From an uncultured Phycisphaerales bacterium (GTDB taxonomy: Bacteria > Planctomycetota > Phycisphaerae > Tepidisphaerales > Tepidisphaeraceae): a stretch of DNA of 64,000 bases. Each line of letters opens with the position of its first letter. Within the stretch, counting starts at the first letter, position 1. The notes under the pieces were generated by a model. That model ran no database searches and was not told the origin of the DNA. It saw nothing but the letters and a program-made list of their open reading frames with translations. Positions 648 to 33,063 of this stretch are shown here, in pieces. Location of the stretch: the NCBI GenBank assembly GCA_963755915.1, contig CAVWLP010000002.1, forward strand, positions 4,032,001-4,096,000, given 5' to 3'. A program made the translations under genes and the position numbers.

Positions 648-2729
648 TCAGGGGTTGACTGTCCAGAGACATTCGTCGGTGAATTGCTGTCCGTTTTTCT
701 CGGCTGATGCAGTTAACTCGCACTTTCCCGGTGCGAGGGGAACCTGATTCCAGACGAAGATGTGGTCGGCACTGGAACGGGTGCCGAGCAACCGGTCGTT
801 GAGAAAGAGGCGGACCGTCTCGCAATTGGAATAGACCTTCAGGTCGGCGAGTCCGGCGGGGCGGGGGTTGTAGCGCTGGTCGGTGATGTGGACGAAGGGT
901 TTTTCGGACCAGTTTGCCTTGTAGAAATAGAAGGCGTCTTTTCTGGTTTGGCGGTTGGCGGTGACGAGGCCCTTGTCGTTGCGGCCGGGGGTGTCGCCTT
1001 CATTGCGGGCGTCGGAGGCGAAATCGAACATGCACCAGACGTAGGTGCCCCACAGCCAGGGGCGCTGATTGATGGTGCGCCAGGCGGTTTCGTGGACGAG
1101 GGATTGCCATTCTTCGGGGTGCCAGTGGCCTTTGGTGGAGGGTTGGGTGGTGGGCTGCTCATGTTGCGCGATGCTGGCGCCGGCGCCGTATTCGCTGATG
1201 CCGATGGCGCGGTTGGGGAGGGTGGCGTGGAGTTTATCGAGTTCGGTAGGCCAATCCGAAACGGTTCCGGTGTACCAGCCGAAGTAGCGGTTGAAGCCGA
1301 TGATGTCGGGGTAGCCGTTGAGGGGGATTTCGGCGGGGAGATGGGAGGCGGCGACGGTGAGGCGCGTGGGATCTAGATGGTGGGCGATATCGTTGAGGTC
1401 GTGGACGAGACGCCAATCGGTGCGGGTATGGGGGCCGAGCTCGTTGAAGAGGCTCCAGAAGCAGATGGAGGGGTGATTATAGTTTTGCTTGATGAGCTCG
1501 CGGACCTGCTCCTGCGCGGCGGCGTAGAAGGCGGGGGTGTCGCTGATGCGATTGACGAGGCAGGCTTCGGCCCAGACGACGATGCCGGCGCGGTCGCAGA
1601 GGGAGTATTCGTATTCGGGGTGCTGGTAATGGGCGAGGCGGACGGTGTTGCAGCCCATTTCTTCGATCAGGGCGTAGCTTTGTTCGATATCGGCGGGGGT
1701 GACGGCCCAGCCTTTGTTGAAGAAGTCCTGGTGGACGGCTACGCCGTGGAGGGGGTAGGGATTGTTGTTGAGGAAAAAACCTTTTTGGGCGTCGACGCGG
1801 AAGGTTCTAAGGCCGAGGGGTTGGATGACGCGGTCTACGATCGTTCCGTTTTGGATGAGTTCGACGGTGGCTTGGTAGAGGTAGGGATCGGCTAGGCCGT
1901 TCCAGAGGTGGGGGGAGGGGATGGTTAGATTCTGGGTGACGTTGGCAGTGGAGTTGGCGGAGATATTTTGCGGGATTTGGGCGGAGCAGATTTGGTGATT
2001 TTCCGCGTCGGTGATGGTGCAGCGGACGTTGATGGCGGCGTCGGATGGGGAATCATTTTTCAGGAGGGTTAGGGCGGTGATTGAGGCGGAGTCGGGGGTG
2101 ATGCGGAAGGGCTGGAGGTAGAGGCCGGGGGAGGCGTCGTCCAGGGGGGAGATGTGGATTTTATTGAGGGTGAGGAGATGGACATTGCGATAGAGGCCGC
2201 CGCAGATGGTGAAGTCGCCGGAGAGAGGGGGGACGTCCTGGGTGGGGGAGTTGTCGACGCGGACGGCGAGGAGATTAACGCCGGGGTGGATGAGGGGGGT
2301 GATGTCGAAGCAGAAGGCGGCGAAGGCGCCGGCGTGATGGCCGGCGGGGTGGCCGTTGAGATAGACGTCGGCGACCATCGAGGCGGCTTCGAAGCGGAGG
2401 AAGAATTGTTTGCCGGTGTCGGCGGGGTCGATGTGGAGGGTGCGGCGATACCAGCAGGGGCCGCGGAAATAGTCGTTGCGGCCGTCCTGGCCGTCGAGGG
2501 CGTTCCAGGTGTGGGGGAGGGTGATGGATTGCCAGGCGGTGTCGTTGAAATCGGGGGATTGGGCGGAGGGGATGTCGCGGCGGAGGAAGCGCCAGCCGGT
2601 GGTGAGGAGGGTGTCTTGGTGGATGTCTTGGCGGGGGGATTGGGAGTTGGGGGTGGTGGCGCAGGCGGTGGAGAGGAGAGATAAGAGCGCGGTGAGGAGG
2701 ATGGTGCGGGAGAATGCGGGCGGGGGCAT
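648..2729 (-). CDS. GH2 glycoside hydrolase, probable beta-glucuronidase/beta-galactosidase; exported, possible lipoprotein
   Basis: 693 aa. N-terminal hydrophobic signal (LLSTAC). GH2 motifs NHPSICFWSLFNE and ISEYGAG. The N-x-K-G motif (RNDKG) is typical of GH2 glucuronidases. Confidence 0.85.
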   Translation of the reverse strand: MPPPAFSRTILLTALLSLLSTACATTPNSQSPRQDIHQDTLLTTGWRFLRRDIPSAQSPDFNDTAWQSITLPHTWNALDGQDGRNDYFRGPCWYRRTLHIDPADTGKQFFLRFEAASMVADVYLNGHPAGHHAGAFAAFCFDITPLIHPGVNLLAVRVDNSPTQDVPPLSGDFTICGGLYRNVHLLTLNKIHISPLDDASPGLYLQPFRITPDSASITALTLLKNDSPSDAAINVRCTITDAENHQICSAQIPQNISANSTANVTQNLTIPSPHLWNGLADPYLYQATVELIQNGTIVDRVIQPLGLRTFRVDAQKGFFLNNNPYPLHGVAVHQDFFNKGWAVTPADIEQSYALIEEMGCNTVRLAHYQHPEYEYSLCDRAGIVVWAEACLVNRISDTPAFYAAAQEQVRELIKQNYNHPSICFWSLFNELGPHTRTDWRLVHDLNDIAHHLDPTRLTVAASHLPAEIPLNGYPDIIGFNRYFGWYTGTVSDWPTELDKLHATLPNRAIGISEYGAGASIAQHEQPTTQPSTKGHWHPEEWQSLVHETAWRTINQRPWLWGTYVWCMFDFASDARNEGDTPGRNDKGLVTANRQTRKDAFYFYKANWSEKPFVHITDQRYNPRPAGLADLKVYSNCETVRLFLNDRLLGTRSSADHIFVWNQVPLAPGKCELTASAEKNGQQFTDECLWTVNP

Positions 2730-2812
2730 GTGAGGGGGAAATATAGCAGACGTGGCAGTTGAGGGCGCGAGCCTGCGCGGGCAAGAGCCGTTGGTCGGGC
2801 AGATTTTTTTTA

Positions 2813-2854
2813 GGCCCTCACCCCAACCCTCTCCCGGGGTACCGGGCGAGGGGG
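2813..2854. repeat. REP-like palindromic element D (CCCTCACCCCAACCCTCTCCC...GGGCGAGGG), followed by a 3x imperfect 10-bp tandem GGGGTAAGAG (2851-2880)
   Basis: GGCCCTCACCCCAACCCTCTCCCGGGGTACCGGGCGAGGGGG. A second copy at 10331-10402 carries an insertion. Confidence 0.8.
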
Positions 2855-2904
2855 TAAGAGGGGGTCAGAGGGGATAAGAGGGGCGGACGCAAATGTGTAA
2901 TTGA

Positions 2905-5900
2905 TTGGAGATGGAACGGAATTGCGAAAAAGGGGTGAATCGGCCAGACTATTTGATCGTGATTCGAGTGCGCATTTCTGGCTGGATTTGGGTGCTGATT
3001 ATCTTGGGCTTGGGGGTTTGGCCGGAGGGCGCGAGGGGGGAAATCGATTCGCGGCAGTTTGGGGCGGACTTGAGCGCGATCTGTGCGTGCGGGTCGAGGG
3101 TGGTGGGGTCGGCGGGGTATTATGAGGCGGGGAAATATCTTGAGCGGGAGATCGGGAAACTTCCTGGGGTGCAGCTTCAGAAGCATGAGTTTGCGGTGAT
3201 GACGCCGGTGACGGAGTGGGCGACGCTGACGATGGAAGGGGGGCGGGTGGAGAATGTTTATCCGTTTTGGCCGGCGCAGATTCGGACGTGCTCTACGCCG
3301 GAGGGGGGAATTTCCGGGAAGGTGGTTTATGCGGGGGAGTGCCGGTACGACGAACTGAAGCCGGCTTCTTTGAATGGGCAGATAGCGGTGATTGAGGCGT
3401 CGGCGGGGGGGCGATGGCCGGAGGTTTTTTATCAGGGGGCGCGGGCGGCGCTGGTACTGGGGAGTGCGGAGACGAGTTGGGTGGATCTGAAGGACGACGA
3501 TCTTCGGATTCCGGTGAATTTTCCGAGGTTTTATGTGCCGCCGGGGAAGCTTGCGGATGATCTGCGGGCGGGGCGAATTGGGCAGGCGACGCTGAGGGCG
3601 AGTGTGAAATGGGAGAGGAGGGTGGGGGTGAATTATTATGCGCTGGTCGATGGAGCAAAGGGGGGAAGAAGAAGGGGGCGGCGCTGATGTTCAGCGTGCC
3701 GCTGGATTCTACCTCGCTGGTTCCGGATTTGTCGCCGGGGGCGAGCCAGGCGGTGCAGGCGGCGGCCGGGCTGGGGCTGGTTCGCGATCTGGCGAAGCAT
3801 CCGTGGGGACGGCCGGTGGTGGTGTTTTTTTCCGGGGCGGATGGGATTCAGTTTTTGGGGACGCGGAATATGCTGATGGCGCTGGGGTCGGGGGCGGAGA
3901 CGTGGGGGGGGCAGATGGGGGAGATGGATGGAGGCATTGCGGAGGCGAGAGGCGAGATTGAAGAGGCGGTTGCGGTGCGCAAATCTTTGCAGGAGTTGGC
4001 GGAGGGTGGGGATCGGGGGCTGGTGCAGAGAATTTTGGAGATCGTGGATGCGGATGCGCTGGGGGTGCAGGATCGGCTGTTTCGGCTTCGCAATGACGGG
4101 GCGGGGGAAGGGGAGATTGCGAAATTGGCGGATGAGCAGCAGGAGTTGAACCGGGTGCGGGCGATGTTTCGGGATCGTCCGGGGGAATTGAGCCAGGCGG
4201 GGTATTCCGCGGAGGCGAGAGATTATATCGATCGGACTATTGCGCGGCTGGGGGGGCTGGTTCAGGAATATAGCGCGCGGAAGGGGGAGTTGCGGAGGCG
4301 AATTGAATTGCATGGTTGGCTGGCGAGCGCGGAGGGTGCGAAGCAGCAGGGGGGGCTGATTGAATTGCTGGTGGGGCTGGATTTAACGGATCGGGGGTAT
4401 CGGGTGGGGCCGTTGTCGTTTGGATATTTCCAGCGGGCAGCCAATGGGGCGATGGGGGAAGTGAGTCCGTTTACGCAATGGATGCTGGAGCGGGGGGAGG
4501 ATTTCGCGAATCATGTTGCGGGGAGCGGGTGGTGGGGGAAGGTGAGTGGGGAGATCGATCTGGGGCCGTTGCGGGGGTTGCGGTCGGCGAATAGTTTTCT
4601 GGCGGGGCCTTTGCCGGTGGGATCGGAGATGGCGTTTGGATGGGGGGTGCCGGGGTTGTCGATGGTGACGCTGGACGATCTTCGGCTGAGGCGGGATACG
4701 CCGACGGACACGGTGGATCGGATTGATGTGGGGGTGGTGGTGGGGGAGTTGAATGGGGTGCGGGATTTGTTTGCGAATGCGTGGAGCGATCCGGCGTTTC
4801 GTGGGCAGGGGCGGGTGAGGCAATTGAACGCGGGGTTTACGGGGCAGGTGGTGAGCGCGTCGGCGGGGAGGCCGGTTCCGGATTTGCCGCGGGAGGGTTT
4901 TCTGGCGACGTATTCGTATATTTTGAACGGGGCCGTGGATCAGAAGATTCCACCGCTGGGGGCGATGCCTTGGGTGCTGGGGATTCGACGGACGGAGGTT
5001 CAGGCGTGTGATTCGTTGGGGGAGTATCGGTTTGAAGGGTTGCCGCAGTTTCCGAGTGACGTGCTGGTGGGGCCGTTCAATGCGACGAACGATATGCAGA
5101 CGTTTGCGGTGAATGTTTATCGGGTTGATCCTTCGAGCGGGGAGATCACGGCGACGACGGATTATGGGAGGCAGGCGGAGGATATTAAATGGTCGGCGGA
5201 TATCAAGCAGGAGGTTCCGCCGCTGCGGAGTTTGCCGTTTGATTGCGAGGAGTATTCGCTGAGCGGGTTATACGATCCGCGATTTTTGCAGACGCTGGGG
5301 GCGGTTTCGGTTCTGGACGCGCGGCGGGGAGCGGAGGCGGAGCATTATTCGGTGTGGCTGGATAATAAGATGCTGGCGGGTTTTGCGGAGCCGGGGGCGC
5401 GGAGCGATCTGCTGATCCGGTATGGGGCGATTGGGAATCGGTTGATTCTGGTCAACGTCCCACCGAGCGGGGAGGGGGAGGGGCGCGGATATACGGCGGG
5501 GGAGTTGAATGGGCTGGGGCCGTTGGCGCTGGCGACAGCGCGGGATTTTTATCGGTTGGATGATGCGAGGCTGGAGAATTATCGGCGGGCGGGAGTGTCG
5601 AGCGGGTTGGTGGATGAATTGCATCGGGAAGCGGGCGAGGAGATTGGGGAGGCAGAGGAGGCGCAGCGCGGGGATGACGGGGTGGCGCTGATGCGCAGCG
5701 CGACGGGGGCTTGGGCGAATGAGGCGCGGGTGTATGACGCGGCGCAGGCGATGGCGCGGGACGTGGTGCGGGCGGCGATTTTTCTGCTGATGATCTGTGT
5801 GCCGTTTTCGTTTTGCATGGAGAGGCTGCTGATCGCTTCGCCGAATGTGTACCGGCAACTCGGCGGGATGGGAGGCATTTTTGCGGTGATGACGGGGGCG

Positions 5901-7889
5901 CTGTGGACGTTTCATCCGGCATTTAAGATCAGCGCGAGTCCGCTGATGATTGTTCTGGCGTTTGCGATCATTTTCATGTCGGGGCTGGTGATTGTGGTGC
6001 TGTATCAGAAGTTTGACGCGGAACTGAAGCGAATGCGGACGGGGAGGGTGGCGGCGAACGGGGCGTCGTTTGGGAGGATGAGCGTACTGATGAGCGCTGT
6101 GCTGCTGGGGATCGCGAATATGCGCCGGCGGAAGTTTCGGACGCTGCTGACCAGTGTGACGATCGTGCTGATCACGTTCGTTGTTTTGTGGTTTACGAGC
6201 ACGAGCCGGTTTCTGGGGACGACGACGGTGGCGACGGGGGTTGCGAGTTCGCATCGGGGAATCATGCTGAGGCAGCGGGGGTTCAGGCCGATTCCGGAAA
6301 TGATGGCGGAGCAATTGCGGGCGGTGCTGGCGGATCCGGCGCTGAAGCTGGGGAAGGCGCGGGTGGTGGAGCGGTGGTGGGCGGTTTCGGCGGATCCGCA
6401 GGATGAATATGACATTGTGGTTGGTACGGGGGGAGGAAAATCGAGGGAGTTTGCGGTGCCGGGGATACTGGGGCTTTCGCCGGGGGAGGGGGAGGTTTCG
6501 CGAGCGGCGGAGGTGATTGGGGCGGATAAATTTGCGCGGCTGGAGAGGGGTGAACAGAACATTGTGTACCTGAGCGGGGCGACGGCGGCGAACATGGGGG
6601 TGCGCGAAGGGGACAGGATTCGGCTGGGGGGGATTGAACTCCAAGTCGCGGGGATATTTTCGGCGGATGCTTTCGATCAGGAGGTTTTATCGCTGGATGG
6701 GCAGGGGATTTCGCCGCTGAAATATAGCGCGGGGGAGCTGGATCCGGGGGGGCAGTCGATGGACGATGCGAGCATGCAGTCGCTGGAGCTTTCGGGAAGC
6801 TCGGCGGCGGCGGAGGCGGGGGTGGTTTATGAGCATCTGTCGGCGACGGATTTTGTGATCGTGCCGTCGGGACTTTGCCGGAGGCTGATGAACAGCTCGC
6901 TGCGGACGGTAGCGGTTCGGCTCGGGAGCGAAGAGGAAGTGAAGACGGTGAGCGATGAAGTGGCGCGGCGTTTTGTGCTGGCGACGTACGCGGGATATGA
7001 CGACGGGGTGAAGATGGTGGCGGCGGGAAATCTGATGAGCATCAGCGGAACAACGCAGGTGGCGATTCCGCTGCTGATCGCGGCGCTGATTGTTTTCAAC
7101 ACGATGATGGGGGCGACGGCGGAGCGGAAGAGGGAGATTCACGTGTATACGTCGCTGGGGCTGGCGCCGATGCACGTGGGGGCGCTGTTTGTGGCAGAGG
7201 CGATGACGTATGGGTTGATTGGGACGGTGTTTGGGTATGTGATCGGGCAGGGGATCGGGAGCGCGCTGCTGAAGCTGGGATGGCTGGGGAGCATCACGCT
7301 GAATTATTCGGGGAGCAGCGCGATCATGACCATGGGATTGATCCTGGCGGTCGTGTTTGTGAGCGCGCTGGTGCCGGCGCGGGTGGCGAGCAAGATCGCG
7401 GCGCCGAGTATTGATCGGACATGGAAGGTGCCGGCGGCGATGAATGATGAGATCCGGGCGGTGCTACCGTTTACGATCAACCGGACGGCGGCGGAGGGGG
7501 CGCTGGCGTATATCGCGGAGTATCTGGAGCTGCATCGGGAGGGGAGTATCGGGAAATTCGCATCCGATCGGGTCGATCCGGTGGCATATGAGGAGACGGG
7601 GGGGTCGTCGCGGGCATTAAAGACGACGGTGTGGCTGACGCCTTATGACCTGGGGATAAGGCAGCAGATGCTGCTGCTGATTCATCCGGGTGTGGATAAG
7701 GATATTTATGAGGTTGAAGTTCGGCTGCGGCGTCAGAGCGGGGATGACGGGAGCTGGCACCGGATGAACAAGACGTTTTTGACGGAATTGCGGAAGCAGT
7801 TTTTGCAATGGCGATCGCTGACGCCGGCGCGGATGCTGGAATATGTGGAGCAGAGCAAGCGGCTGTTTGCGGCGCCGGCAGGTGTTTAA
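2905..7889 (+). CDS. Large (~1650 aa) membrane protein: signal peptide, PA + degenerate M28 peptidase-fold region, then C-terminal FtsX/MacB-type permease domains; one frameshift near 3660-3685
   Basis: ORFs 2905-3687 and 3609-7889 join in a G/A homopolymer stretch. M28-like segments SRVVGSAG, VPLDS...PGASQA, LDL and RDTPTD. FtsX signatures ANMRRRKFRTLLT and ERKREIHVYTSLGLAP...LFVAEA. The likely start is GTG 2968. Confidence 0.75.
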
Positions 7890-7894
7890 CGCGG

Positions 7895-9902
7895 ATGAAA
7901 GAAGATCTTGAACTGAAAGCATTTCGGGAGCTGATGGAGCCGCCCGATACGTGGGAGGACGGTTTTGGCCTGAAGGCCATGATCGGGGGGGTGTTCGTCG
8001 GCGTGATTATGACGCCGGCGAGCATGTATATGCAGCTTGTGGCGGGATCGGAGGTGGGGACGGCGGCGCAGTGGGTGACGATCATTTTGTTCCTGGAGCT
8101 GGCGCGGCGGAGTTTTACGGTTTTGAAGCGGCCGGAGATTTTTGTGCTTTATTACATGGCGGGGGCGTGCCTGGTGAACACGACTTCGGCCAATGGGGGG
8201 CCGGGGCATGGGTTGCTGTGGCAGCAGTTCATTGTGCAGAGCGATTCGTTTCGGCAGTTTGGGCTGGCGGGAAAGATACCGTCGTGGGTGGCGCCGTCTT
8301 CGCCGACGGTGTTGGGGGCGAGGAGCTTTTTCAATTCAGAATGGATCGCGCCGGTGGGGCTGCTGATTCTGGGGCAGTTTTTGGCGCGGGTGGATAATTT
8401 TTGTTTGGGATACGTGATGTACCGGGTGACGAGCGACGTGGAGAAGCTGCCGTTTCCGCTGGCGCCGGTGGGGCGCAGGGGGTGACGGCACTGGCGGATG
8501 CGTCGAAGGGGGATGACACGTGGCGGTGGCGGGTGTTCAGTTTTGGGGCGATGCTGGGGATTGGGTTTGCGGCGATTTACATCGCGCTACCGTCGATAAC
8601 GGGATCATTTTTGCCGCAGCCGATCAGCATTATTTCGTTTCCGTTCAAGGATTTCACGAGCAACACGGAGGATTTTCTGCCGGCGGTGCCGATGATCGTG
8701 GCGTTTGATTTGGGGCTGGTGATTTTGGGGATGGTGCTGCCGTACTGGGCGATGGTGGGGAGTTTGATCGGGCTGATTGGGTCGATGGTTATGAATCCGG
8801 TGCTGTTTCATTTTGGGATATTGAAGAGTTGGGGGCCGGGGCTGGGGGCGGTGCGGACGATGGAAGCGAACACGCTGGATTTTTACTTTTCATTTGGGCT
8901 GGGACTGACGGGAGCGATCGCGGTGATTGGGATTTGGCACGTGGTGAGCCGGTTGTTTGGCGGGCGTGAAGGCCCCGGGCAAAGCGATTGGCGGTCGCTG
9001 CTGAAGCCACCGCCGGGGAGGGGGGATTTTTCGGTGTGGCTGGCGCTGTTTCTATATTTCGCGGCGGCGTTTTCGACGATTGGGGTTGCGTGGTGGCTGC
9101 TGCGTATGGCGCACCTGGAGGGGATGGGAAGCGCGGTGACGGCGCGGTTGCTGGGGGTGCTGATTTTTTATGGGTTGTTTTATTCGCCGATCATTGGATA
9201 TGTGAGCGCACGGATGGAGGGAATCGTGGGGCAGAATGTTGAGCTGCCGTACGTGCGCGAGGCGGCGCGGATATTGACGGGATATCGCGGGGCGGCGATC
9301 TGGTTCATTCCGATGCCGAGCAACAATTATGGAAATCAGGCGCTTTATTTCCGCAAGACGGAACTTACGGGAACGAAGATCAGCTCGATGGTGAAGGCGG
9401 AATTGTTTGTGTTTCCGGTGACCGTGCTGGCGATGGTGGTGTTCAGCAATTTGATCTGGAAGATTGCGCCCGTGCCGAGCGGGGCGTTTCCGTATGCGCA
9501 GCAGTGGTGGGAATTGGCGGCGTATCGGCAGGGGCTGCTCTATTCGAGCACGCTGGCGGGGGGGAATTCAGTCCCTTTTCGCAGGCGTTTCATCCGGGTT
9601 ATCTGCTGGGTGGATTGGGGGGATCGGTGGTGTTGTATGTATTGTTGTCGGCGCTGGGAATGCCGGTGCTGCTCTTTTATGGGATTGTGCGGGGGATGGA
9701 TCAGAGCGCGCCGCAGGTGATCCTGCCGGAATTTTTCGGGGCGCTTTTGGGGCGGTATTATTTCGAGAAAAAGATCGGTCCGAAGTGGAAACAGTACATC
9801 GTGGTTTTCTTTGCGGGGTATAGCTGCGGGGTTGGATTGATCATGATGTTCAGCCTTGGGCTGGTGTTTATAAGTAAGAGCGTTTTTCAGAGGCCTTATT
9901 GA
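7895..9902 (+). CDS. OPT/YSL-like oligopeptide-transporter-family membrane protein; frameshifts near 8470 and 9580
   Basis: Three overlapping hydrophobic ORFs (7808-8485, 8401-9720, 9504-9902) form one polytopic protein. Contains the EKLPFPLAP(VGA) motif resembling the OPT LxFP motif. Confidence 0.7.
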
Positions 9903-10882
9903 TGATTTTCGCGTGGCAAGGTTGGCAACTTCAGATGCCGGATGAATGGAATCCGGTGAATCTCCATGGGACGTTCGAGGCGGGTTATGCGCTGCTGTCG
10001 GATATTCATCGGCCGCGGCTGGGAATTCGGTGGGGGACGCCTGGGAGGGGATTCGATTGCAAGCGATGGGCGCGGGAGGCGCTGGTGGCGGAGATTGGGG
10101 AGCTTGCGGCGAAGGAAGGGGAAGAGTGCGGGGATGAGCGATTTGGGGAGGCGATTTTGTATTTGGAGGCGGAGCCGCCGGGACGGGACGTTTGGGTGGG
10201 GTTCAGCAAGGTTTTGGGGCGAACATTTGAGATGGTTCATCACGTTTACACAGGCGAAACTTCGAAGATGAGAAAGTTGGGAAAGGGATTTTCGGACGGG
10301 GCGATTGGATGTGGCTCAAAATTCTTTCACGGCCCTCACCCCCTCCCTCTCCTCTTCGAGCCTGAGCCTCAGAGCCGAAGGCCAGAGTACCGGGCGAGGG
10401 GGAAAGAAGCGCGTGGGGGAGAAATGGCTTGGGCGGCGTTTGATTTGAGTTGCGTGACTGGCGGTGGGTGGCGGCTGGCTTCGCATAAGATGAATGCGGG
10501 GGATTTGAGTTTGGAATTCGCGCGGAAATCGGAGCGGATGAGCGTGCGGCAGATCGCGGTGGCGCATTTGGCGTTGAAGCGGATGCTGCTGGAGAAGTGG
10601 ATAGAGGAGCAAAGTCGGCCGTGGATGAAACGGTATCGCCGGGTCGGCGACGTTGCGGCGGTTTCGATGGCGACGAGCGACGGGCGCGGGTTGGAAGGTG
10701 TTTCGTGCCGGCTGGAGCGCCGGAAGTTGATGATCTGGGGGCCCGGGATGGGGGCGATGTATCTGGCGGTGCTGCATGATGCAAGGAGGGACCGGCTGAT
10801 ATTCGTGGAGGCGAAGGACGAATCGCAGGCGGAGGAGTTGGTGCGTTCGGTTGGTTGGGCGGCGCAGGAGGTTTTGTGTTGA
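9899..10882 (+). CDS. Hypothetical protein with two similar halves, separated by an in-frame repeat-derived insert
   Basis: 327 aa, overlapping both neighbours. The halves begin FAWQGWQLQMPDEWNP and WAAFDLSCVTGGGWRL. Residues GPHPLPLLFEPEPQSRRPEYRARG are encoded by the repeat at 10331-10402. Confidence 0.65.
   Translation: MMIFAWQGWQLQMPDEWNPVNLHGTFEAGYALLSDIHRPRLGIRWGTPGRGFDCKRWAREALVAEIGELAAKEGEECGDERFGEAILYLEAEPPGRDVWVGFSKVLGRTFEMVHHVYTGETSKMRKLGKGFSDGAIGCGSKFFHGPHPLPLLFEPEPQSRRPEYRARGKEARGGEMAWAAFDLSCVTGGGWRLASHKMNAGDLSLEFARKSERMSVRQIAVAHLALKRMLLEKWIEEQSRPWMKRYRRVGDVAAVSMATSDGRGLEGVSCRLERRKLMIWGPGMGAMYLAVLHDARRDRLIFVEAKDESQAEELVRSVGWAAQEVLC
10331..10402. repeat. REP-like element D with 30-bp element C inserted, lying inside a CDS
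   Basis: 10331-10352 and 10383-10402 match 2813-2854 (38/42). 10353-10382 matches the reverse complement of 560-589 (29/30). Total 72 bp = 24 codons. Confidence 0.9.
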
Positions 10883-11203
10883 CGCGTGAGGATATTCTGA
10901 CGGCGAAGCCGCTGCGCGGCGGACGCGGTGGTGGAGCGGCGGGAAGACGGCGGTGCGCACGTGAAGATTCCGGTGAGCGGGCGGTGGCCGTTTCGGATGC
11001 CGGCAGGGGCGGTGAAAACGTTCGAGCTTGACGAGATGGGATTGTGGGTTTGGGATGCGTGCGACGGGAAGAGGACGCTGCTGGAGGTGATTACGAAGTT
11101 TGCCGAAAATTACCGGCTGAGCGTGCGGGAGGCGGAAGTGGCGACGACGAAGTTTTTGCAGACGCTGGGATCGCGGCGGCTGATGAGGTTGGAACCGAAA
11201 TAG
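10876..11203 (+). CDS. PqqD-family (RRE winged-helix) protein; frameshift near 10920
   Basis: AGGAGG RBS at 10866, then (V)LTREDILTAKPLR. After the shift, FELDEMGLWVWDACDGKRTLLEVITKFAENY...FLQTLGSRRLM fits the PqqD pattern. Confidence 0.8.
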
Positions 11204-11216
11204 GATGTGAGCGGCA

Positions 11217-11915
11217 ATGGACGCGCAGAGATTAGACGGCAAGAAAGCGCCCGGGCGGCAGATTGTACTGCCGCTGGGGGTGGCGCTGCGGATCGCGTAT
11301 GAGAATATCCGGATGCGACTGGGGCGAAGTTTGCTGACGACGAGCGGGATTGTTCTGGGCATCGCGTTTTTGACGTCGATCCTGGTGATGAACGTGATGA
11401 TGCGCGGCATGCGGGAGTGGGCTGTGAGTTCGGCGGGCCAGGTTGCCAAGCTGCAGGAACTGATGAATAAAAACGGCGTGCCGGTGACGCGGGAGGAGAT
11501 TGCCAACGATGCGATTCAGACGCGGTGGCTGCTTGGGCTGGCGATGCTGGTGGCGTTTATCGGGATATTGAATTCGACTCTGATGAGCGTGACGGAGCGA
11601 TTCCGGGAAATCGGGACGATGAAATGCCTGGGGGCGCTGGATGGGTTTATCCTGCGGCTGGTTTTTCTGGAGAATTTGTTTCAAGGGGTGGCGGGGACGA
11701 CGATCGGTATTTTGCTTGGGGCGGGCCTGGCGATGGTGGCGCAGACGGTGAGTTACGGGGCGTTCGCGTGGAAGAATATTCCGGTGGCGGAGCTGATTGA
11801 ATCCATGGGATTCTGTTTCATCGTGGGGTTGGCGCTCACGCTGGGAGGGGCGATTTGCCCAGCGTGGCAGGCGGCGCGGATGCAGCCGATCGCGGCGATG
11901 CGAGTGGAGCCATGA
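11217..11915 (+). CDS. Small FtsX-like ABC permease (4 TM)
   Basis: RSLLTTSGIVLGIAF, GILNSTLMSVTERFREIGTMKCLGA, PAWQAARMQPIAAMR. Confidence 0.9.
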   Translation: MDAQRLDGKKAPGRQIVLPLGVALRIAYENIRMRLGRSLLTTSGIVLGIAFLTSILVMNVMMRGMREWAVSSAGQVAKLQELMNKNGVPVTREEIANDAIQTRWLLGLAMLVAFIGILNSTLMSVTERFREIGTMKCLGALDGFILRLVFLENLFQGVAGTTIGILLGAGLAMVAQTVSYGAFAWKNIPVAELIESMGFCFIVGLALTLGGAICPAWQAARMQPIAAMRVEP

Positions 11916-12640
11916 ACGAATTTACGGTGCGGACGATCGATGTGAAGCGCAGCTACCCGATGGGGGGCGAAGTGTTGCATGCGCTGAAGGGGGTGAGTTT
12001 GTCGATCGGGCGGGGGGAATATATTTCGATCATGGGGCCGTCGGGGTCGGGGAAGAGTACCTTGTTCAATATGATTGGGGGGCTGGACAAGCCGTCGGAG
12101 GGGAAGGTTTATATTGACGAAGTGGATATCGCGCAGCTCGATAGCTATGAGCTGGCTTGGATGCGTTGCCATAAGATCGGGTACATTTTTCAGACGTTTA
12201 ATTTGATTCCGGTGATGACGGCGCTGGAGAACGTGATGATGCCGATGATTTTTGCGGGTCTGAATGCGGCGGATGCGCAGGACAAGGCGGCGGAAATTTT
12301 GAAGCGGGTGGAACTGGGGCATCGGCTGATGAACCGGCCGAGCGAGATGTCGGGGGGGCAGCAGCAGCGGGTGGCGATAGCGCGGGCGTTTGCGAATGAT
12401 CCGACCATTATTCTGGCGGATGAGCCGACGGGGAATTTGGATCTGCAGACGGGTAAGTTGATCATTGAGCTGCTGCGGCAACTGAACAAAGAACGGGGGG
12501 TGACGATCATTAGCGCGACGCACGATCATAAGATGCTGGCGGTGAGCGATCGGATTATGTGGATCAGCGATGGGAAGCTGGAGCGGATTCAGAATCGGGA
12601 GGATGTGAAGATTGAGGTGGGGAAGATCGAAGGGGCTTGA
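11912..12640 (+). CDS. ABC transporter ATP-binding protein (LolD/MacB type)
   Basis: Walker A GPSGSGKST, signature MSGGQQQRVAIARA, Walker B ILADEPTGNLD, H-loop ATHD. ATGA overlap with the permease. Confidence 0.95.
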   Translation: MNEFTVRTIDVKRSYPMGGEVLHALKGVSLSIGRGEYISIMGPSGSGKSTLFNMIGGLDKPSEGKVYIDEVDIAQLDSYELAWMRCHKIGYIFQTFNLIPVMTALENVMMPMIFAGLNAADAQDKAAEILKRVELGHRLMNRPSEMSGGQQQRVAIARAFANDPTIILADEPTGNLDLQTGKLIIELLRQLNKERGVTIISATHDHKMLAVSDRIMWISDGKLERIQNREDVKIEVGKIEGA

Positions 12641-12820
12641 TAGATTTTTATTGAGTGGGGCTTCCCGGGTTTGGGGAGAATAAAGAGGAAGATTTTTATC
12701 GGTTGCGGTTTGTGTGACGAGAAGAGGCGGTCACTCGTATAGGGGACCGCGGTTCCGCCGCGGGAGCACATGGCTGGCCGGGTGACGTTCGGGGCGACCT
12801 TGGGGTGTTGATCGGGGAGG

Positions 12821-13939
12821 TTACCGAAGTCCCTGCGTGAAGGCGGTGGAGAGGTTGGACGGCCAGGAGTAGGTGCCGGGTTTTAAAATGAGAAGGGGGG
12901 CGGTTCTGCCGGCGGGCAGGAGGGCGACGACGCCGGGGGCGATTGTGGATTTGACTTGGAGGGTGGACCACTGGAGACGCTCGATGACGGCGGAGGCGGT
13001 GGCGCCGCCTTCGATGATGAGAGTTTGGACTGGATGGGCGGAGAGGAGCGGGGGGATGAGATCGGCGATGGCGGTGCGGATTTGGTCGGTGCGGGCGGAT
13101 GTGACGGGGGAGCGGGCGGCGATGAAGGCGTAGCCGGTGGTGCGAAGTTGGAGAAGGGCCTTGGGGGCGTCGAAGGGGAGGTCGCAGATGACGGCGCCGG
13201 CGGCGAGTTGTGCGACAAACTCGCGGCTGGGGGTGGAGGCGCTGCCGAAGATGACGATTGCGTTGAGCGGTGATGCGAAGGGTTCGGTGGGGATGGGTTG
13301 GAGGGCGAGGGATTGGAGCAGGGCGGCGAAGAAATCTGCGCCGCCGGCGAAAAGGGTTTGGGAATCTCGTTGGGTGGACCAGTGGCGGATTTCGGATGCG
13401 GTGGCGGCGGCGCCGATGGTGATTCCGCGCGGCAGGGGGGGCTGACCTGGAGGGAGGCATTCGACATCGAGCGTTTGTGCGGGGTCGAGGAGGCGGCAGA
13501 CTTCGGATGTCGGTGGTGGGTTTTCGAGATCGACGGCCACCGGGGAATGGTGCAGGGGGATGTGGTCGATCAGGTATTGGCCATTTTCGATGATGCGGTT
13601 GCGAGAGGGATTCTGGGGGACGAGCAGGGCGCGAGGGAATTTAAGCGATGCGATGGCGGCGAGGAGTTCGGCGGCGACGCAGCCACGGAGCATGGAGTCG
13701 GTTTTTTTATAGATGAGGCTGAAATCGGCGGGATCGACGGTGTTGAGAATCGATTTGATCCGCTCGGCGGCCGCGTGCGGCGGGAGAAGGCGTGAGTCGG
13801 TGTCGAAGATGAGAACGTCGGCGGGGGTTTGGGGGAATTCGCCGCGGTGGATTATCGCGGAGAGGCCGTGGGCGGTTGCGAGGCCACCGATTTCAGCGGC
13901 GCCGGTGAGGTCGTCGGCGATGACAAGGAGGGGTTTCAA
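12821..13939 (-). CDS. Four-carbon acid sugar kinase family protein (DUF1537; DtnK/DenK-like)
   Basis: IADDLTGAAE, DTDSR, IYKKTDSMLRG, EGGATA, LKPG. Confidence 0.9.
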   Translation of the reverse strand: MKPLLVIADDLTGAAEIGGLATAHGLSAIIHRGEFPQTPADVLIFDTDSRLLPPHAAAERIKSILNTVDPADFSLIYKKTDSMLRGCVAAELLAAIASLKFPRALLVPQNPSRNRIIENGQYLIDHIPLHHSPVAVDLENPPPTSEVCRLLDPAQTLDVECLPPGQPPLPRGITIGAAATASEIRHWSTQRDSQTLFAGGADFFAALLQSLALQPIPTEPFASPLNAIVIFGSASTPSREFVAQLAAGAVICDLPFDAPKALLQLRTTGYAFIAARSPVTSARTDQIRTAIADLIPPLLSAHPVQTLIIEGGATASAVIERLQWSTLQVKSTIAPGVVALLPAGRTAPLLILKPGTYSWPSNLSTAFTQGLR

Positions 13940-14964
13940 CGGTTGGCGGCCATTTTCGCCGCATATTGAATGGCATCAAGGAGGCTGGCGTCGCTGGCGG
14001 TGCCTTTGCCGGCCTGGTCGAAGGCGGTGCCGTGATCGACAGAAACGCGGATGATGGGCAGGCCGAGGGAAACATTGACGCCGTTGACGCGTGCCCAGTG
14101 TGCGGCGGCGGGATCGAAGAGGAAGCCGCGGATTTTCGCGGGGATGTGGCCCTGGTCGTGATACATGGCGACGCAGATGTCGTAGAAGCCGGTGACGGCC
14201 TTGGCGAAAAATGTGTCGGGGGGCTCGGGGCCTTCGACTTTGATTCCGGCGGCCCGCGCGGCATCGATGGCGGGAATGATGTGCTCGCGTTCTTCGGTTC
14301 CGAAAAGGCCGCCGTCGCCGGCGTGGGGGTTGAGGCCGGCTACGCCGATGCGGGGGCTCTTGATGCCGAGGCGCAGACAGGCTTCGTGGGCGAGCTTGAT
14401 GACGCTGAGGACGCGCTCCTTGGTGATGGCGTTGCAGGCGTCGCGAAGCGAGACGTGGGTGGAGACGTGGACGACGCGAAAATTGTCGGCCGCGAGCATC
14501 ATGGTGAAATTTTGGGTCTTGGTGAAATGGGCGAAGATTTCGGTGTGGCCTGGAAAGTCGTGGCCGGCGAGGACGAGGGATTCTTTGTGAATCGGCGCGG
14601 TAACGGTGGCGTCGATATCGCCGGCGAGTGCGAGGGTGATCATCGTCTTGACGGCGCGGAAGGCGGCGTCGCCGGCCATCGCGGAAATTTCGCCGAGGCG
14701 AAGAGCGGATAAATCCGGGCCATCGATGGCGAGGACATCGATCACATCCGGTTTGAAATGGGTTTCGGATGGTTTGGCGATGGGGTTGATTGTTAGGTTG
14801 ACGCCCGCATAGGCGACAGCGTGTTTCATGATGGCGGGATCGCCGATGACGATCGGGCGGCAGAGCTGGTGCGTTGGCTGGCGCGAAAGAGCCATGGCGA
14901 TGATTTCCGGACCGATGCCGGCGGGATCGCCCATGCTAATTCCGATTTTGGGTGGTTGATTCAT
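13936..14964 (-). CDS. pdxA: PdxA-family dehydrogenase, probably PdxA2 (D-threonate/D-erythronate 4-phosphate dehydrogenase)
   Basis: MGDPAGIGPE, PGHTE, GLNPHAG, AMYHDQGHIP, RVSVDHGTAFD. Adjacent to a DUF1537 kinase. Confidence 0.9.
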   Translation of the reverse strand: MNQPPKIGISMGDPAGIGPEIIAMALSRQPTHQLCRPIVIGDPAIMKHAVAYAGVNLTINPIAKPSETHFKPDVIDVLAIDGPDLSALRLGEISAMAGDAAFRAVKTMITLALAGDIDATVTAPIHKESLVLAGHDFPGHTEIFAHFTKTQNFTMMLAADNFRVVHVSTHVSLRDACNAITKERVLSVIKLAHEACLRLGIKSPRIGVAGLNPHAGDGGLFGTEEREHIIPAIDAARAAGIKVEGPEPPDTFFAKAVTGFYDICVAMYHDQGHIPAKIRGFLFDPAAAHWARVNGVNVSLGLPIIRVSVDHGTAFDQAGKGTASDASLLDAIQYAAKMAANR

Positions 14965-15929
14965 TTCAAAGGGCGCTGTTTTGGTGGGTTTGTTTGGAGG
15001 GCATCGGCGGAATTTGAATTCCCCACGGCAGCGCCGTGGGCGTTCACAGAGGAAACTGGGCCGGGAGCGTCGCCGTTTTGGTTGGTTAGAGGGGGGAGCA
15101 TGGTGCGGCCGCAGAGGCCGCGCTCTTCGAGCATTGCTTTGAGGGAAGCTAATCCGAGGCCCAGGGTGCGGCATTTGAGATATCGAGAGCAGAGGGCATC
15201 CGTTTGATTTTGCAGCTCTTCGACGGCGTCCCAGCGCTCTTCGGAGGCGGCGTCGAACAGGGCGCGATAGAGTTCCGGGGCGAGATTGGCGCCGCTGGGA
15301 ACGATGCCCGCGCCGCCGCGTTTGAGGCCGAGGAGGAACTGGGGGCTGTTGCCGATGAGGATGGGAAAACCGTCGCGACCACCGGTGAGGCGGAGGAGAT
15401 CGACGACGCGGGTGGGGTCGCCGGCGGACTCTTTCAGGGCGACGATGTTTTCGTGGCGGCGGAGGCGGTCGATTGCGGTGAGGGGAATGGTTTGATGCGT
15501 GGTGGACGGGATGTTGTAGAGAACCAGGGGAAGGGGAAGATCGTCGGCGAGGCGGACAAAGTAAGATTCGATCTGCTCGTTGGTGAGGGGAAAGTAACTG
15601 GGCACATGGGCGACAAGGACGTCGGCGCCGATTTGGGCGTAGGCTTTGGCGGCTTCGAGGGATTCCTGAAAGCAGTTGGCGGCGATGCCGGCGTAGACGG
15701 TGGCTTTTTTGTCGGCGGCGCGAACCGTGAACTCGACCAGACGCCGTTTTTCGGTGGGATGGATTGAGGCGGACTCGCCGGTGGTACCGAGGGCGAAGAT
15801 TCCGTGGACACCGCCGTTCACGAGGTGGGCGACGAGACGGTCAACCGCGGGTTTGTCGATGCGGCCGTCGGTGGTGAAGGGGCTGACCATGGGAACGACC
15901 AGTCCGTGGAGGGAAAGAGAAACGGGCAT
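14961..15929 (-). CDS. DHDPS/NAL-family class I aldolase
   Basis: GTTGES, LYNIP, Schiff-base Lys in ALKES. The C-terminal tail runs through repeat A. Confidence 0.9.
   Translation of the reverse strand: MPVSLSLHGLVVPMVSPFTTDGRIDKPAVDRLVAHLVNGGVHGIFALGTTGESASIHPTEKRRLVEFTVRAADKKATVYAGIAANCFQESLEAAKAYAQIGADVLVAHVPSYFPLTNEQIESYFVRLADDLPLPLVLYNIPSTTHQTIPLTAIDRLRRHENIVALKESAGDPTRVVDLLRLTGGRDGFPILIGNSPQFLLGLKRGGAGIVPSGANLAPELYRALFDAASEERWDAVEELQNQTDALCSRYLKCRTLGLGLASLKAMLEERGLCGRTMLPPLTNQNGDAPGPVSSVNAHGAAVGNSNSADALQTNPPKQRPLK
15011..15049. repeat. Palindromic element A (CCCACGGC-N3-GCCGTGGG)
   Basis: 36/39 identical to 26940-26978; lies within the 3' end of the aldolase ORF. Confidence 0.85.
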
Positions 15930-17958
15930 TACAGTGGGCTCCTTGAAAAGTCATAGTGGGTTTTAGAGGTTGCTTCATTCTGCTCTTGCTCGGTGGCGAT
16001 GATGCGCTCGGCGATGGCTTCCATCGCTGAAGCGGCGGCCCAGGCGTTGTAGCTCCACCAGGTGCTGGAGGCGGAGTTGTCGTCATGGTATCGCTCGACG
16101 AGAAGTCCGTCGCTGGGGCAGGTGCGCTCGGAAAGAACGCCGTAGGCGCCGTAGCCGGTGACGCGGGGGTAGAGTTCCATCGTGTTCATAAGCCAGGCGA
16201 TGCCGTCTTCGGCACGGTTGGCGTGATAGGCGTCGGCGGTTTTTCGGGCGAGGTAGTGAAGGTCTTCGGTGACGACGGTGCTCATGGGATGGATGTGGGG
16301 GTTGGAGACGGAAGTGATCGAGCCGCCGCAGGAATTCCAATCGCTGGCTTTGAGGGGCGGCGATTGGGGGCGGGTGCGGAATCCGTAGCGCCAGAGGTAT
16401 TCGTAGTGGGCGCCGTCCTGGAGCATGTCGAGATAGAGCGGATCGGCGGTGTGCGTGTGCATGAGGCGGGCGGCGCGGATGAAGGCGAGGTTTCCTTCGG
16501 AATCGACGCTTTTGAAAGTGTCCATCGGCGATCCCCAGCAGGCGAGATTTGTCACGAAGTGACGGTAGTAGTGTAGTGCGCGGGCGGCGGCGTCGCGATA
16601 GCGGGTGTTGCTGGTGAGCTTCCAGGCGTGAATGAGCGCGGGGGCGAACCAGCAACCGGCGAAGCCGTCCCAGTCGACGACCTTTTTTTCTGAGCTGCTG
16701 AAGATGTAACCGAAGGCGCCGTCGTCGCGCTGTAATTCGACGGCGGTGTCGAGTACGCGGAGGGCGACGTCAACCCAGCGGCGGCAGTGGGGGGTGTCCG
16801 CGGGGAAGGGGTTTGAAGCGGCGCGAAGAAGATAATAGGCGGCGTGGGCGTTGGTGTAGGCGCAATGGTTGCCCTGGGTTTGAGGTAAGAAACCTGACCA
16901 CCAGCCGTTGATTTCGGATGCGTTCCAATCTTTGGGGCGGTTGTGGGTGAAGCGATTGAGAGTGGTGTCGTTGAGGAAGCCGGAGGACTCGTTGAAGCCG
17001 GTTGCGATCTCGTTGAAGATTTGGGCTGAATCTTTGGGAAGTTTTAGATCGGGGAAGAGGCGCTCGGCGAGCTGGAAGGGGTAGGCGAGGACGGTGCCTC
17101 CGGTCCAGCCGATTTCGACGATGGCGCGCCAGGGTTCGAGATTGAGGTCAACCGGGACGCGGCATTTTCGGTTGGTGTACTGCTGAAGCTCGGGGGAAAA
17201 GTTGATTTTTGCGAAGGCGTCGGCGAGGGCGCGCAGGGCGTCGCGAAACGAGCGGGAGAATTGCGGAATGCTGCGCATCTCCTCGTAGATGGCGCGGATG
17301 ATTCGGTGGGCGGCGAGGCGCCCGGCGCCGGGCACGGCGAATATTTTTCCTGTTGCACCGGCGCGATGGGTAAGATCGGCCGTGGCGGGGGCGAAATGCG
17401 TTTTTTCGACAAAGGTTAGCGGGTCATTTCCGTAGCCCAGGGCGACGCCGAAGCGATCGGGGAGGGCGGCGAAGAGGCCGTTGCGGATGAAGCCGTCGTC
17501 GGCGTTGCCGGAGGGGGAATAGGGGTCGATGGAAATTCCAACCGCTCCGCGCTGGCAGCAGAGGATTGAGACGGGATGAGAAGCGCGATCGGCGCGGAAT
17601 TCCCAGAGGGGGGCGCAATTTCGCTCGGCGGGGCGGGCGCCGGTGAGGCAGGGGAATTCGCCGGGACGGACGAAGGGGGCGTTGTTGTCGCCGTGGATGT
17701 TTCCGGGGATGAGATGGAAGAGGTCGGATTCATCCAGCAGCCGGGCTTGGAGGCGGATGCGGGTTTTGAAGTGGGATTTGAAGTTGAGGGAGTATTCCAA
17801 ATGGTCGTGTTCGCGATCGACGTGGAACCGGCCCTCGATGCCTTTGTGGTTGAAAACGTCTCCATCGGCGCCGGGCGCAGGGGGAGATCCATCCAACTTC
17901 CCTGCTGGAAGGCGGTGAGCGACAGTTGGAGCGCGAAATCGTTCAGGTGGACGACCAT
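15929..17958 (-). CDS. Hypothetical protein with a predicted C-terminal (alpha/alpha)6-barrel, glycoside-hydrolase-like; probable frameshift near 17880
   Basis: Helical repeats such as LQRDDGAF, WKLTSNTRYRDAAARA and HTADPLYLDMLQ. A plausible N-terminus MVVHLNDFALQLSL lies in another frame (ATG 17958). Confidence 0.6.
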
Positions 17959-18121
17959 ACAACTAATTGATAGCGGGATGAATCGCGACGCCCAAAAGTT
18001 AATCTGCGGGTGGCGAAGGGCCTAGAACAATCTAGCGTAATTGTTTTGCAGATTTGCGCACTTGCGGATATAGGGTAAGAAAGTGGGCCGATAAGGGCCG
18101 AAATCGCGGAAATAAGGGAAT

Positions 18122-18145
18122 GGTGGGCGAATTCGCCCACCCTAC
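18122..18145 (-). repeat. GTAG-type REP-like palindrome
   Basis: Minus strand reads GTAG-GGTGGGCGAATTCGCCCACC: GTAG followed by a perfect 20-bp palindrome. Confidence 0.7.
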
Positions 18146-18152
18146 GTTGGGT

Positions 18153-20503: not shown

Positions 20504-20507
20504 TTCT

Positions 20508-24776: not shown

Positions 24777-24788
24777 GGGTGAGCCTTC

Positions 24789-26825: not shown

Positions 26826-26939
26826 TCAGGCGGTTGAAGAGTAACGGGCTGTCACGGCCGCACATATTACGATATCGCGCATTTGTTTTGCAGGAAGACG
26901 CTGTGGGAAGCCCTGTGTAAATTTTGATCGCGGCATTGA

Positions 26940-26978
26940 AATTCGAATTCCCCACGGCGGCGCCGTGGGCGTTCCCAG
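26940..26978. repeat. Palindromic element A (uninterrupted copy)
   Basis: AATTCGAATTCCCCACGGCGGCGCCGTGGGCGTTCCCAG, immediately after the stop of the gene ending at 26980. Confidence 0.85.
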
Positions 26979-26979
26979 A

Positions 26980-28725: not shown

Positions 28726-28728
28726 GGT

Positions 28729-31113: not shown

Positions 31114-31121
31114 GGACCCTT

Positions 31122-33055: not shown

Positions 33056-33063
33056 GTGGATAA

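Follow-up and report, generated by a model that had tools for sequence, protein, structure and literature searches.

A tightly packed six-gene operon in an uncultured Phycisphaerales bacterium (GCA_963755915.1, contig CAVWLP010000002.1) is, as judged from recurrent gene order across genomes, one module of a conserved membrane system with seven or eight parts. The operon lies in a window of 64,000 nucleotides (nt), by which we mean the whole stretch of DNA analysed (positions 4,032,001 to 4,096,000 of the contig; coordinates below are those of the window). It encodes a giant FtsX/MacB-type permease with an apparently dead peptidase ectodomain (G), a polytopic OPT-like permease (O), a protein with two Mog1/PsbP-like domains (H), a small PqqD-family protein (P), a small FtsX-type permease (F) and an ATP-binding cassette (ABC) ATPase (A), while a seventh partner, the DUF6785/DUF6784 permease D, is encoded downstream. 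The system is a kind of type VII ABC with a set of partners not described before, and we found no paper on it. With a probability of roughly 0.45, we read it as an inner-membrane machine in which an ATP-driven mechanotransducer, two OPT-like permeases and a cytoplasmic P-H pair would together handle a peptide-like ligand.

Operon layout and conservation of the gene set

A preliminary description, made from the sequence alone, reported six same-strand, closely packed genes, and open reading frame (ORF) and Pfam calls recover all of them as described (Table 1). The genes follow the order G-O-H-P-F-A with junctions of -28 to +13 nt: G and O are separated by 5 nt, O and H overlap by 4 nt, H and P overlap, P and F are 13 nt apart, and F and A overlap by 4 nt. 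As assembled, G spans two frames and O three. The original gene set thus holds, while the system proves larger, its seventh partner D lying beyond the stretch first described. Consensus scans of positions 2500-13000 are uninformative on the limits of the operon: where 3.0 promoter-like sites are expected there are six, each of them on the minus strand, and where 9.1 terminator-like sites are expected there are 15.

Table 1 Features of the operon and its surroundings in the window
Feature	Position	Strand	Basis
G, giant FtsX/MacB-type permease, ~1,650 residues	2905-7889	+	PF02687, 5.5e-13
O, polytopic OPT-like permease, ~669 residues when intact	7895-9902	+	no Pfam match
H, tandem Mog1/PsbP-fold protein	9899-10882	+	no Pfam match
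REP-like palindromic repeat, in frame inside H	10330-10405		blastn and protein-level search
P, PqqD-family (RRE-type) small protein	10855-11203	+	PF05402, 1.2e-9
F, small FtsX-type permease	11217-11915	+	PF02687, 9.2e-20
A, LolD/MacB/FtsE-type ABC ATPase	11912-12640	+	PF00005 (ABC_tran), 1.6e-36
Apparent acid-sugar catabolic module	12821-15929	-	
676-residue ORF	15929-17962		no Pfam match
GH2 gene, first ORF	18054-19679		
GH2 gene, second ORF	19634-20503		
XylR/AraC-type regulator	20466-21740		
D, DUF6785+DUF6784 permease	21767-23794	+	PF20581, 1.5e-83; PF20580, 2.8e-24
Run of glycan-degrading genes	23787-36183	-	

Conservation of the operon was followed in 80 O-anchored loci from species-representative genomes, in which the other parts were located by tblastn. 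Record names and identity band sorted 79 of these loci into three groups (L055, its O cut by a contig end, was left out), and only loci with enough flank enter each count. In the 48 Tepidisphaerales-like loci, G lies upstream of O in 37/42 and D is adjacent to O in 9/33, with H found in 22/31, P in 20/31, F in 21/38 and A in 17/38; the loci of this group with D hold an extra gene of ~2.2 kb between O and H. The 20 Desulfobacterota loci have the gene order F-A-G-D-O-h1-H-P, with G upstream of O in 9/16 (D standing between them), D adjacent to O in 10/10, H in 6/10, P in 4/10, F in 5/11 and A in 7/11. In a second Planctomycetota group of 11 loci, G is upstream of O in 5/9 and D adjacent in 5/9, F and A occur in 1/9 each, and H and P in 0/9; some loci hold O alone. 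Because the gene set recurs across the 80 loci, its grouping is far from chance, and the synteny that the preliminary description proposed as a check is indeed conserved in Tepidisphaerales, in other Planctomycetota and in Desulfobacterota.

Co-occurrence was counted in 401 genomes of the phylum, which are related and not independent, so that the counts are descriptive. O is present in 67 genomes (E<=1e-20), the C-terminal half of G in 67 (E<=1e-40), D in 71, 65 of them over the Pfam cut-off, and H in 41 (E<=1e-10). The overlap amounts to 66 genomes for G and O and to 64 for D (over cut-off) and O, and each of the 41 genomes with H also has O. G is directly upstream of O in 10/10 pairs compared by coordinates, and in 27 genomes no more than 15 kb separates D from O. 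The window's own genome has a single DUF6785 gene, D, 9 kb downstream of the operon. Since O occurs in only 1/12 other genomes of the same genus and 2/18 of the family, the system is accessory in both.

The cultured strain Fontivita pretiosa carries a split version of the system, with G-O at ~4.85 Mb and D-H-P-F at ~5.245 Mb. In the latter cluster (L100, G429:C1:5238000-5256000) a DDE transposase follows where the ATPase would be expected, and a Wza-like (Poly_export+SLBB) gene precedes the cluster. Further genes accompany the system in particular lineages, none with a Pfam match: an optional gene of ~180-220 residues between F and A in Tepidisphaerales-like loci (L012:14524-15054, L013:16988-17617, L018:14540-15202); h1, of ~200-290 residues, between O and H in Desulfobacterota (L071:11962-12702); and, in the second Planctomycetota group, a protein of ~1,050 residues encoded directly upstream of G (L056:1718-4933, L064:1861-5004), which may be a further lineage-specific part. 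KdsD-like (SIS+CBS) and KdsC-like (HAD) genes precede this last gene in L056 and L064.

A pseudo-peptidase fused to an FtsX-type permease

G begins with an N-terminal membrane anchor and a PA/M28 ectodomain into which a coiled coil is inserted; next come a beta domain and three very conserved transmembrane (TM) helices, and G continues with a MacB-type FtsX module (TM1, a putative periplasmic core domain, TM2-4) and a cytoplasmic C-terminal domain of ~170 residues, which is conserved and has no recognisable relative; an Atlas search with this domain gave no usable match. A profile of 22 G homologues matches the PA-M28 aminopeptidase 2ek8 (1.7e-19), nicastrin and the transferrin receptor at its N-terminus, and MacB (5gko, 1.5e-12), YtrF, LolF and LolC/E at its C-terminus, with weak matches to the LolE/LolC periplasmic domain. 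PF12704 reaches 2.6e-4 in the homologue from L071, below cut-off, and is precomputed in some homologues. The names given to G homologues are generic throughout (for example 'FtsX-like permease family protein' or 'hypothetical protein').

An AlphaFold model, built for residues 1-1003 of the homologue from L012, has a predicted local distance difference test score (pLDDT) of 89.6 and a predicted template modelling score (pTM) of 0.88, and comprises the membrane anchor, the PA-M28 fold with a long helical hairpin (~362-508) inserted, the beta domain (~674-870) and helical hairpins leading toward the membrane. Foldseek matches this ectodomain model to 2ek8 (8.1e-17) and then to PaAP, BSAP, TfR1 and GCPII; its rows contain PA-M28 proteins only, in a search made with the ectodomain as a whole.

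The M28 ligand columns were mapped from the profile alignment onto 45 G homologues and four sites were tabulated, the residues that we take to be the metal ligands being assigned from general knowledge. The first His is found in 0/45 (Pro in 24, Phe in 8, others in the remainder), the catalytic Glu in 1/45 (Asp in 33, His in 7), the ligand Glu in 2/45 (Ser in 24) and the last His in 0/45 (Asp in 36, Gly in 7). In the window G itself, the first two of these sites carry VPLDST and FSGADG. By this alignment the G ectodomain is a catalytically dead PA/M28 domain that has lost its metal ligands, which agrees with the pseudo-M28 assignment made at the outset.

The ABC module

Type VII (MacB/LolCDE/FtsEX-like) ABCs transmit movement across the membrane without themselves carrying cargo. 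F has four TM helices and a short outer loop of ~45 residues, and homologues of G and F match the FtsX domain (PF02687) as these two proteins do. The Walker A, signature, Walker B and H-loop motifs of A, read from its translation, are intact. The top NCBIfam models for A are LolD, MacB, YbbA and FtsE, all below their curated cut-offs (LolD TIGR02211, the best, 1e-70 and 237.7 against a cut-off of 307.75; FtsE 201.6 against 264.85), and the next best are NF038007 (darobactin exporter ATPase, 199.5 bits) and TIGR03608 (bacteriocin exporter ATPase, 193.4 bits). The lolCE model gives 43.5 against a cut-off of 362 and the FtsX models at most 30 bits against cut-offs of 225-255, such that no operon protein reaches an equivalog cut-off for LolCDE, FtsX, MacB or YbbA. 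We presume from these domain assignments that F and the FtsX module of G form a heterodimer powered by two copies of A, a type VII ABC. The domain calls and the synteny bear out the earlier view that a MacB/FtsX-type ABC with two unlike permeases belongs to one conserved system.

This architecture parallels that of the FtsEX partners, which are coiled-coil proteins whose hydrolase domain is either degenerate or active (compare PMC7668044 and PMC11491553). The operon could accordingly be read as an envelope regulator of the FtsEX-EnvC kind, in which the ABC switches the ectodomain so as to activate or position an envelope enzyme while O and D perform a separate job, and some loci do adjoin KdsD/KdsC-like genes, TamB/Omp85 or a Wza-like exporter. 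We consider this decidedly unlikely, because the co-occurrence of G, O and D and the position of G directly upstream of O disfavour separate jobs, and because the accessory spread of the system (67/401 genomes of the phylum; 1/12 of the genus) is unlike that of core envelope machinery.

The OPT-like permeases O and D

O has at least 1,945 homologues, all of ~666 residues. Searches for PF03169 (OPT) gave no match at E<=1 for the O pieces of the window, for the O proteins of L012 and L071 or for 17 alignment members, and the O profile found no match among PDB sequences. One O homologue carries a precomputed PF03169 match. In the Atlas, the clusters nearest to O bear the name 'peptide transporter' and have PF03169 in 15-33% of their members, and DUF6785/DUF6784 clusters come next. 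An hhalign comparison places O and D in one colinear alignment of 568 columns (E 1.9e-4, probability 47%), an earlier run having given E 0.0016 and 16%; both proteins are polytopic, of ~660-720 residues, and share an E(K/R)LPFP(M/L)A motif. From these alignments, O and D are probably distant paralogues of OPT-like architecture, their membership of the OPT family being putative.

H and P as a predicted cytoplasmic pair

H has no signal peptide and consists of two tandem Mog1/PsbP-like domains. In the model of the L012 homologue (pLDDT 90.8, pTM 0.84) these span residues 33-173 and 172-325, and each reaches a VIA-align Z of 9-11.5 against 3hlz, 2xb3, 5h7y and Mog1. The fold matches comprise BT_1490, PsbP, TplEi (Foldseek 1.3e-4), Mog1, LpqN and SciW, a type VI secretion system (T6SS) protein (6xrb, Z 9.5). 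The H profile found no match among PDB sequences, and the likeness is one of fold only. The family is large, with 1,916 cluster representatives at E<=1e-3.

The window H carries ~44 extra residues that are absent from 20 homologues, and the insertion is lineage-specific, in frame and free of stops. Its core is a palindromic element resembling repetitive extragenic palindromes (REP-like). The element returns 47 blastn rows in the genome, its own place included, of which up to 31 overlap one position, and 17 protein-level matches, which amounts to ~30-46 other copies across the genome. Members of the family are ~75-nt palindromes with arms of the CCCTC...GAGGG type and are scattered through the genome. 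A different REP-like element of the same style occupies the same site in the H of the related assembly G401, and short-read contigs pile up and break at the H repeat.

P, which scores 4.4e-13 against PF05402 in L012, matches the PqqD models of the PQQ, lasso and SCM types weakly, below every NCBIfam cut-off. Its ORF as assembled covers 10928-11203, and the likely start is 10855 (TTG) or 10876 (GTG). Upstream of 10913, the conserved N-terminal sequence 'LTREDILTAKPLR' stands in a different frame, the result of a 2-nt error in the assembly; once the frame is joined, P has a conserved N-terminal extension of ~50 residues that matches 32 homologues. By ORF calls, the stop of H coincides with the start of P in four loci.

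Predictions of an H-P complex, a kind of test proposed in the preliminary description for PqqD and its partners, pass with interface scores (ipSAE) of 0.65, 0.73 and 0.65 against 0.00 for the best control. This mark is reached by 116/157 solved pairs and 2/215 mismatched pairs, a calibration that holds only roughly here because our own alignments were used. Contacts agree to at least 97% between runs, partner pLDDT is at least 79, and the predicted interface takes in three invariant residues of H (G201, A223 and L227) and two nearly invariant ones of P (R98 and E99). H and P are therefore predicted to bind each other as a cytoplasmic heterodimer.

Frame breaks and assembly quality

Four indels interrupt the 9.7 kb of the operon as assembled. 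G is broken at ~3655-3685, within G6/G5 runs, and O twice, at a GGGG run (~8470) and at a further G run (9557); each of these three breaks falls within or next to a run of G, in a stretch far richer in G than in C, and the fourth is the 2-nt error within P. Logan contigs of four soil-metagenome runs from one study were aligned to the operon as a short-read check. Contigs of three runs insert G behind 9557, and one contig inserts GC behind 10913, which joins the PqqD ORF to the upstream frame holding the conserved N-terminus. Two of the four indels are thus contradicted by short-read contigs, and ~3655-3685 and ~8470 are not visibly covered. An intact protein of 669 residues that is 97% identical to O (P0001) is present in the protein collection. 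As the short-read contigs repair two breaks and the other two lie in G runs, the breaks are probably mostly, perhaps all, assembly errors, and the operon genes probably intact in the window genome. The frameshifts noted initially are therefore at least partly errors of the assembly.

The indels, together with the repeat insertion in H, might alternatively be real lesions of a decaying relic. A break at ~8470 is common to G401, and the system was not found in 11/12 other genomes of the genus. We regard decay as highly improbable, given the short-read evidence, the placement of breaks in a G-rich stretch and in or beside G runs, and the repeat in H that keeps the frame without a stop. Both assemblies also have low marker completeness (81% for the window genome, in 3 contigs; 66% for G401, in 5 contigs) and split other genes at differing places.

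Genomic context

In the window the operon is surrounded by GH2, GH95, GH127, BNR/sialidase-like, DUF6298 and acid-sugar catabolism genes. Directly downstream on the minus strand are SBD_N/NBD_C (four-carbon acid-sugar kinase type), PdxA-family dehydrogenase and DHDPS-family genes, which look like an acid-sugar catabolic module, followed by the 676-residue ORF. The GH2 gene is split into two overlapping ORFs, probably through another indel of the assembly. A GH2 gene at the opposite end of the locus, whole in the window, is broken into three pieces in G401. Upstream of D stand the XylR/AraC-type regulator and the split GH2 gene, and beyond D runs a minus-strand series with a GH43/GH130-like gene, a BT_1020-like propeller with a sialidase-type carbohydrate-binding module, GH95, GH127 and a DUF6298 protein of 1,038 residues. 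Among the same-genus genomes compared, only G401 shares the genes flanking the operon. An origin of the operon from another phylum was considered and dropped, as a PdxA-like gene next to it shares its relatives among Tepidisphaeraceae, at 70-72% identity. By the named relatives of this gene and of O, the organism is Tepidisphaeraceae-like.

Flanks elsewhere were surveyed through 122 ORFs within 6 kb of the cluster at 17 of 25 picked loci. They are heterogeneous and mostly of housekeeping type, and include MgtE, PNPase, a flavoprotein, succinate dehydrogenase, L9, PRPP synthetase, MreB, PPDK, multihaem cytochromes, type IV pilus genes, TamB/Omp85 and KdsD/KdsC-like genes. Only 3/17 loci (L021, L027, L039) have degradative carbohydrate-active enzymes (CAZymes) or sulfatases, while GH57, GT2, GT4 or Wzy occur at three others and an HlyD-family ORF at one.

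These flanks bear on the first reading of the preliminary description, in which the system, replacing SusC/D, would be an ATP-energised device for the uptake or envelope handling of large oligosaccharides. In its favour, GH2, GH95, GH127, GH43-like and acid-sugar catabolism genes border the operon in the window, and D stands behind a XylR/AraC-type regulator and GH2, an arrangement repeated in G401; a pectinesterase, sulfatases or a GH42 fragment also lie near some other loci. Outside the window genome and G401, however, the neighbours are unrelated and mostly housekeeping genes with few CAZymes, so that neither the glycan-locus argument nor glycan uptake is supported. The five DUF6785 paralogues of Fontivita stand in mixed gene contexts, and among the seven system proteins Pfam finds neither a carbohydrate-binding domain nor a glycoside hydrolase, the domains that can be recognised being peptide-related. 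The expected association with DUF6785 genes therefore holds and that with CAZymes is not supported. Of the two cargoes first proposed, a glycan appears improbable, and the parts are better suited to a peptide or protein partner.

The flanks also speak to a possible role in exporting or maturing a peptide or small protein encoded elsewhere, in which P-H would bind the leader, O/D or the ABC would export the product and G would receive it. PqqD domains are generally known as leader-recognition elements (RRE) of ribosomally synthesised and post-translationally modified peptides (RiPPs), and P has such a domain; A resembles darobactin and bacteriocin exporter ATPases, MacB-type ABCs are exporters, and H shares its fold with SciW. 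Against this, radical SAM, YcaO, lasso-cyclase or other RiPP maturases account for 0/122 flanking ORFs, in a survey that did not extend to unlinked genes, and the operon itself contains no precursor peptide or maturase and, with junctions of at most 13 nt, has no room for a small ORF. No membrane-fusion (HlyD/MacA) partner is encoded in the operon, no outer-membrane partner accompanies it, and the M28 domain would be unable to cleave a leader. We therefore view export as fairly unlikely, and the original statement that this is not classical RiPP machinery is upheld.

Strand asymmetry in the window is also extreme and local. GC skew starts at +0.46 (2-4 kb), declines smoothly, crosses 0 near 40 kb and ends at -0.24 (62-64 kb). 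At third codon positions the skew is as high as +0.73 in genes of the + strand and as low as -0.76 in those of the - strand, with GC content constant, so that it goes with the DNA strand and not with the orientation of genes. Genome-wide, the skew ranges from ~-0.3 to +0.35 over tens of kb with no two-replichore pattern, and in 5-kb windows of the same genome |skew| has a median of 0.105 and a 95th percentile of 0.31. At the relatives' loci these two values are 0.04 and 0.14, except at L009, L056 and G401.

Proposed mechanism

In the inner-membrane machine that we favour, ATP-driven flexing of F/G would move the dead-peptidase receptor domain, much as FtsEX moves its coiled-coil pseudo-peptidase EnvC. 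On the outer face of the membrane, the receptor domain of G would catch or release a peptide-like ligand, whose route through the membrane would be provided by O and D, and P-H would serve as the cytoplasmic acceptor or donor. A peptide-like ligand is favoured because M28/PA, OPT-like and PqqD proteins deal with peptides and no sugar domains are present. We lean towards peptide uptake or sensing in an accessory nutrient or signal role, as the patchy, accessory distribution fits acquisition or sensing better than core envelope biogenesis. A more specific version is somewhat unlikely in our estimation: a type VII mechanotransducer physically coupled to an OPT-fold secondary permease pair, with the dead-peptidase receptor outside and the PqqD/PsbP-fold pair inside, whose ATP-driven movement gates or drives a (poly)peptide through a non-ABC conduit.

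Several points weigh against this machine. Its cargo, its direction and the physical complex are all putative; O is without a Pfam OPT match, and its homology to D is weak (hhalign probability 16% and 47%). Known type VII ABCs are exporters, extractors or regulators, not importers, and a PqqD domain normally marks RiPP biosynthesis. A sugar-derived cargo is possible because D is co-oriented with GH2 and a sugar-type regulator in a glycan-degrading island. Several O-anchored loci have no G, H, P, F or A nearby, and 26 of the 67 genomes with O give no match to H at E<=1e-10. Finally, two of the four indels are uncorrected, and the ~8470 break is common to the independent assembly G401.

If the more specific version is true, the system is a hybrid transporter unlike any described so far. 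It is widespread in Planctomycetota, where about one in six of the sampled genomes has it, and in Desulfobacterota. Known type VII ABCs are few and their roles differ, from efflux and lipoprotein sorting to cell-wall hydrolase control and lipid extraction, and a further widespread system with unprecedented partners would widen the uses of the mechanism. It would also open a first route to the function of three large orphan families, namely DUF6785/DUF6784, the family of O and that of H, and it places a PqqD domain in a setting free of RiPP enzymes. Because the cultured strain Fontivita pretiosa carries it, the system is testable.

Comparison with known systems

Our literature search found no paper on DUF6785/DUF6784 and none linking PqqD with MacB/FtsX systems, and, by a term search, the text of a Phycisphaerae genomics paper (PMC11266412) mentions none of FtsX, oligopeptide, PqqD, ABC transporter, GC skew or SusC.

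The nearest relatives of the ABC module are the type VII systems MacAB-TolC, LolCDE-LolA, FtsEX-EnvC and YbbAP-TesA, with which it shares 4-TM FtsX modules and an ATPase of the LolD/MacB/FtsE type. It would resemble MacB in the putative periplasmic core domain of G, and it resembles LolC/LolE in that the operon encodes two unlike permeases, and FtsEX-EnvC in placing a coiled-coil and dead-peptidase element on the outside. It differs from all of these in that the receptor or pseudo-peptidase is fused to the G permease as an ectodomain of ~1,000 residues and that G has three extra TM helices and a conserved cytoplasmic tail, and from MacAB-TolC in that no MacA/TolC-type partners accompany the operon. 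We know of no type VII system with an obligate OPT-like permease or with PqqD/PsbP-fold companions.

The ectodomain of G shares the PA and M28 folds of TfR, GCPII, nicastrin and the PA-M28 aminopeptidases (2ek8, BSAP, PaAP). As in TfR and nicastrin, the metal site appears to be gone, and the domain would act as a binding module. Unlike these proteins, G has a coiled-coil hairpin of ~150 residues inserted in its M28 domain, followed by the beta domain and helical hairpins, and its ectodomain is covalently joined to an ABC permease. P matches PF05402 as do the PqqD/RRE proteins of the PqqD-PqqE and lasso B1 systems, but it has no precursor or maturase nearby, carries an N-terminal extension of ~50 residues, and its predicted partner is the tandem Mog1/PsbP-fold protein instead of an enzyme. 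With respect to the OPT family and DUF6785, D is a bona fide DUF6785/DUF6784 member and O falls below Pfam thresholds; and whereas known OPT proteins are solo proton-coupled importers, here two probable paralogues, O and D, accompany an ABC module.

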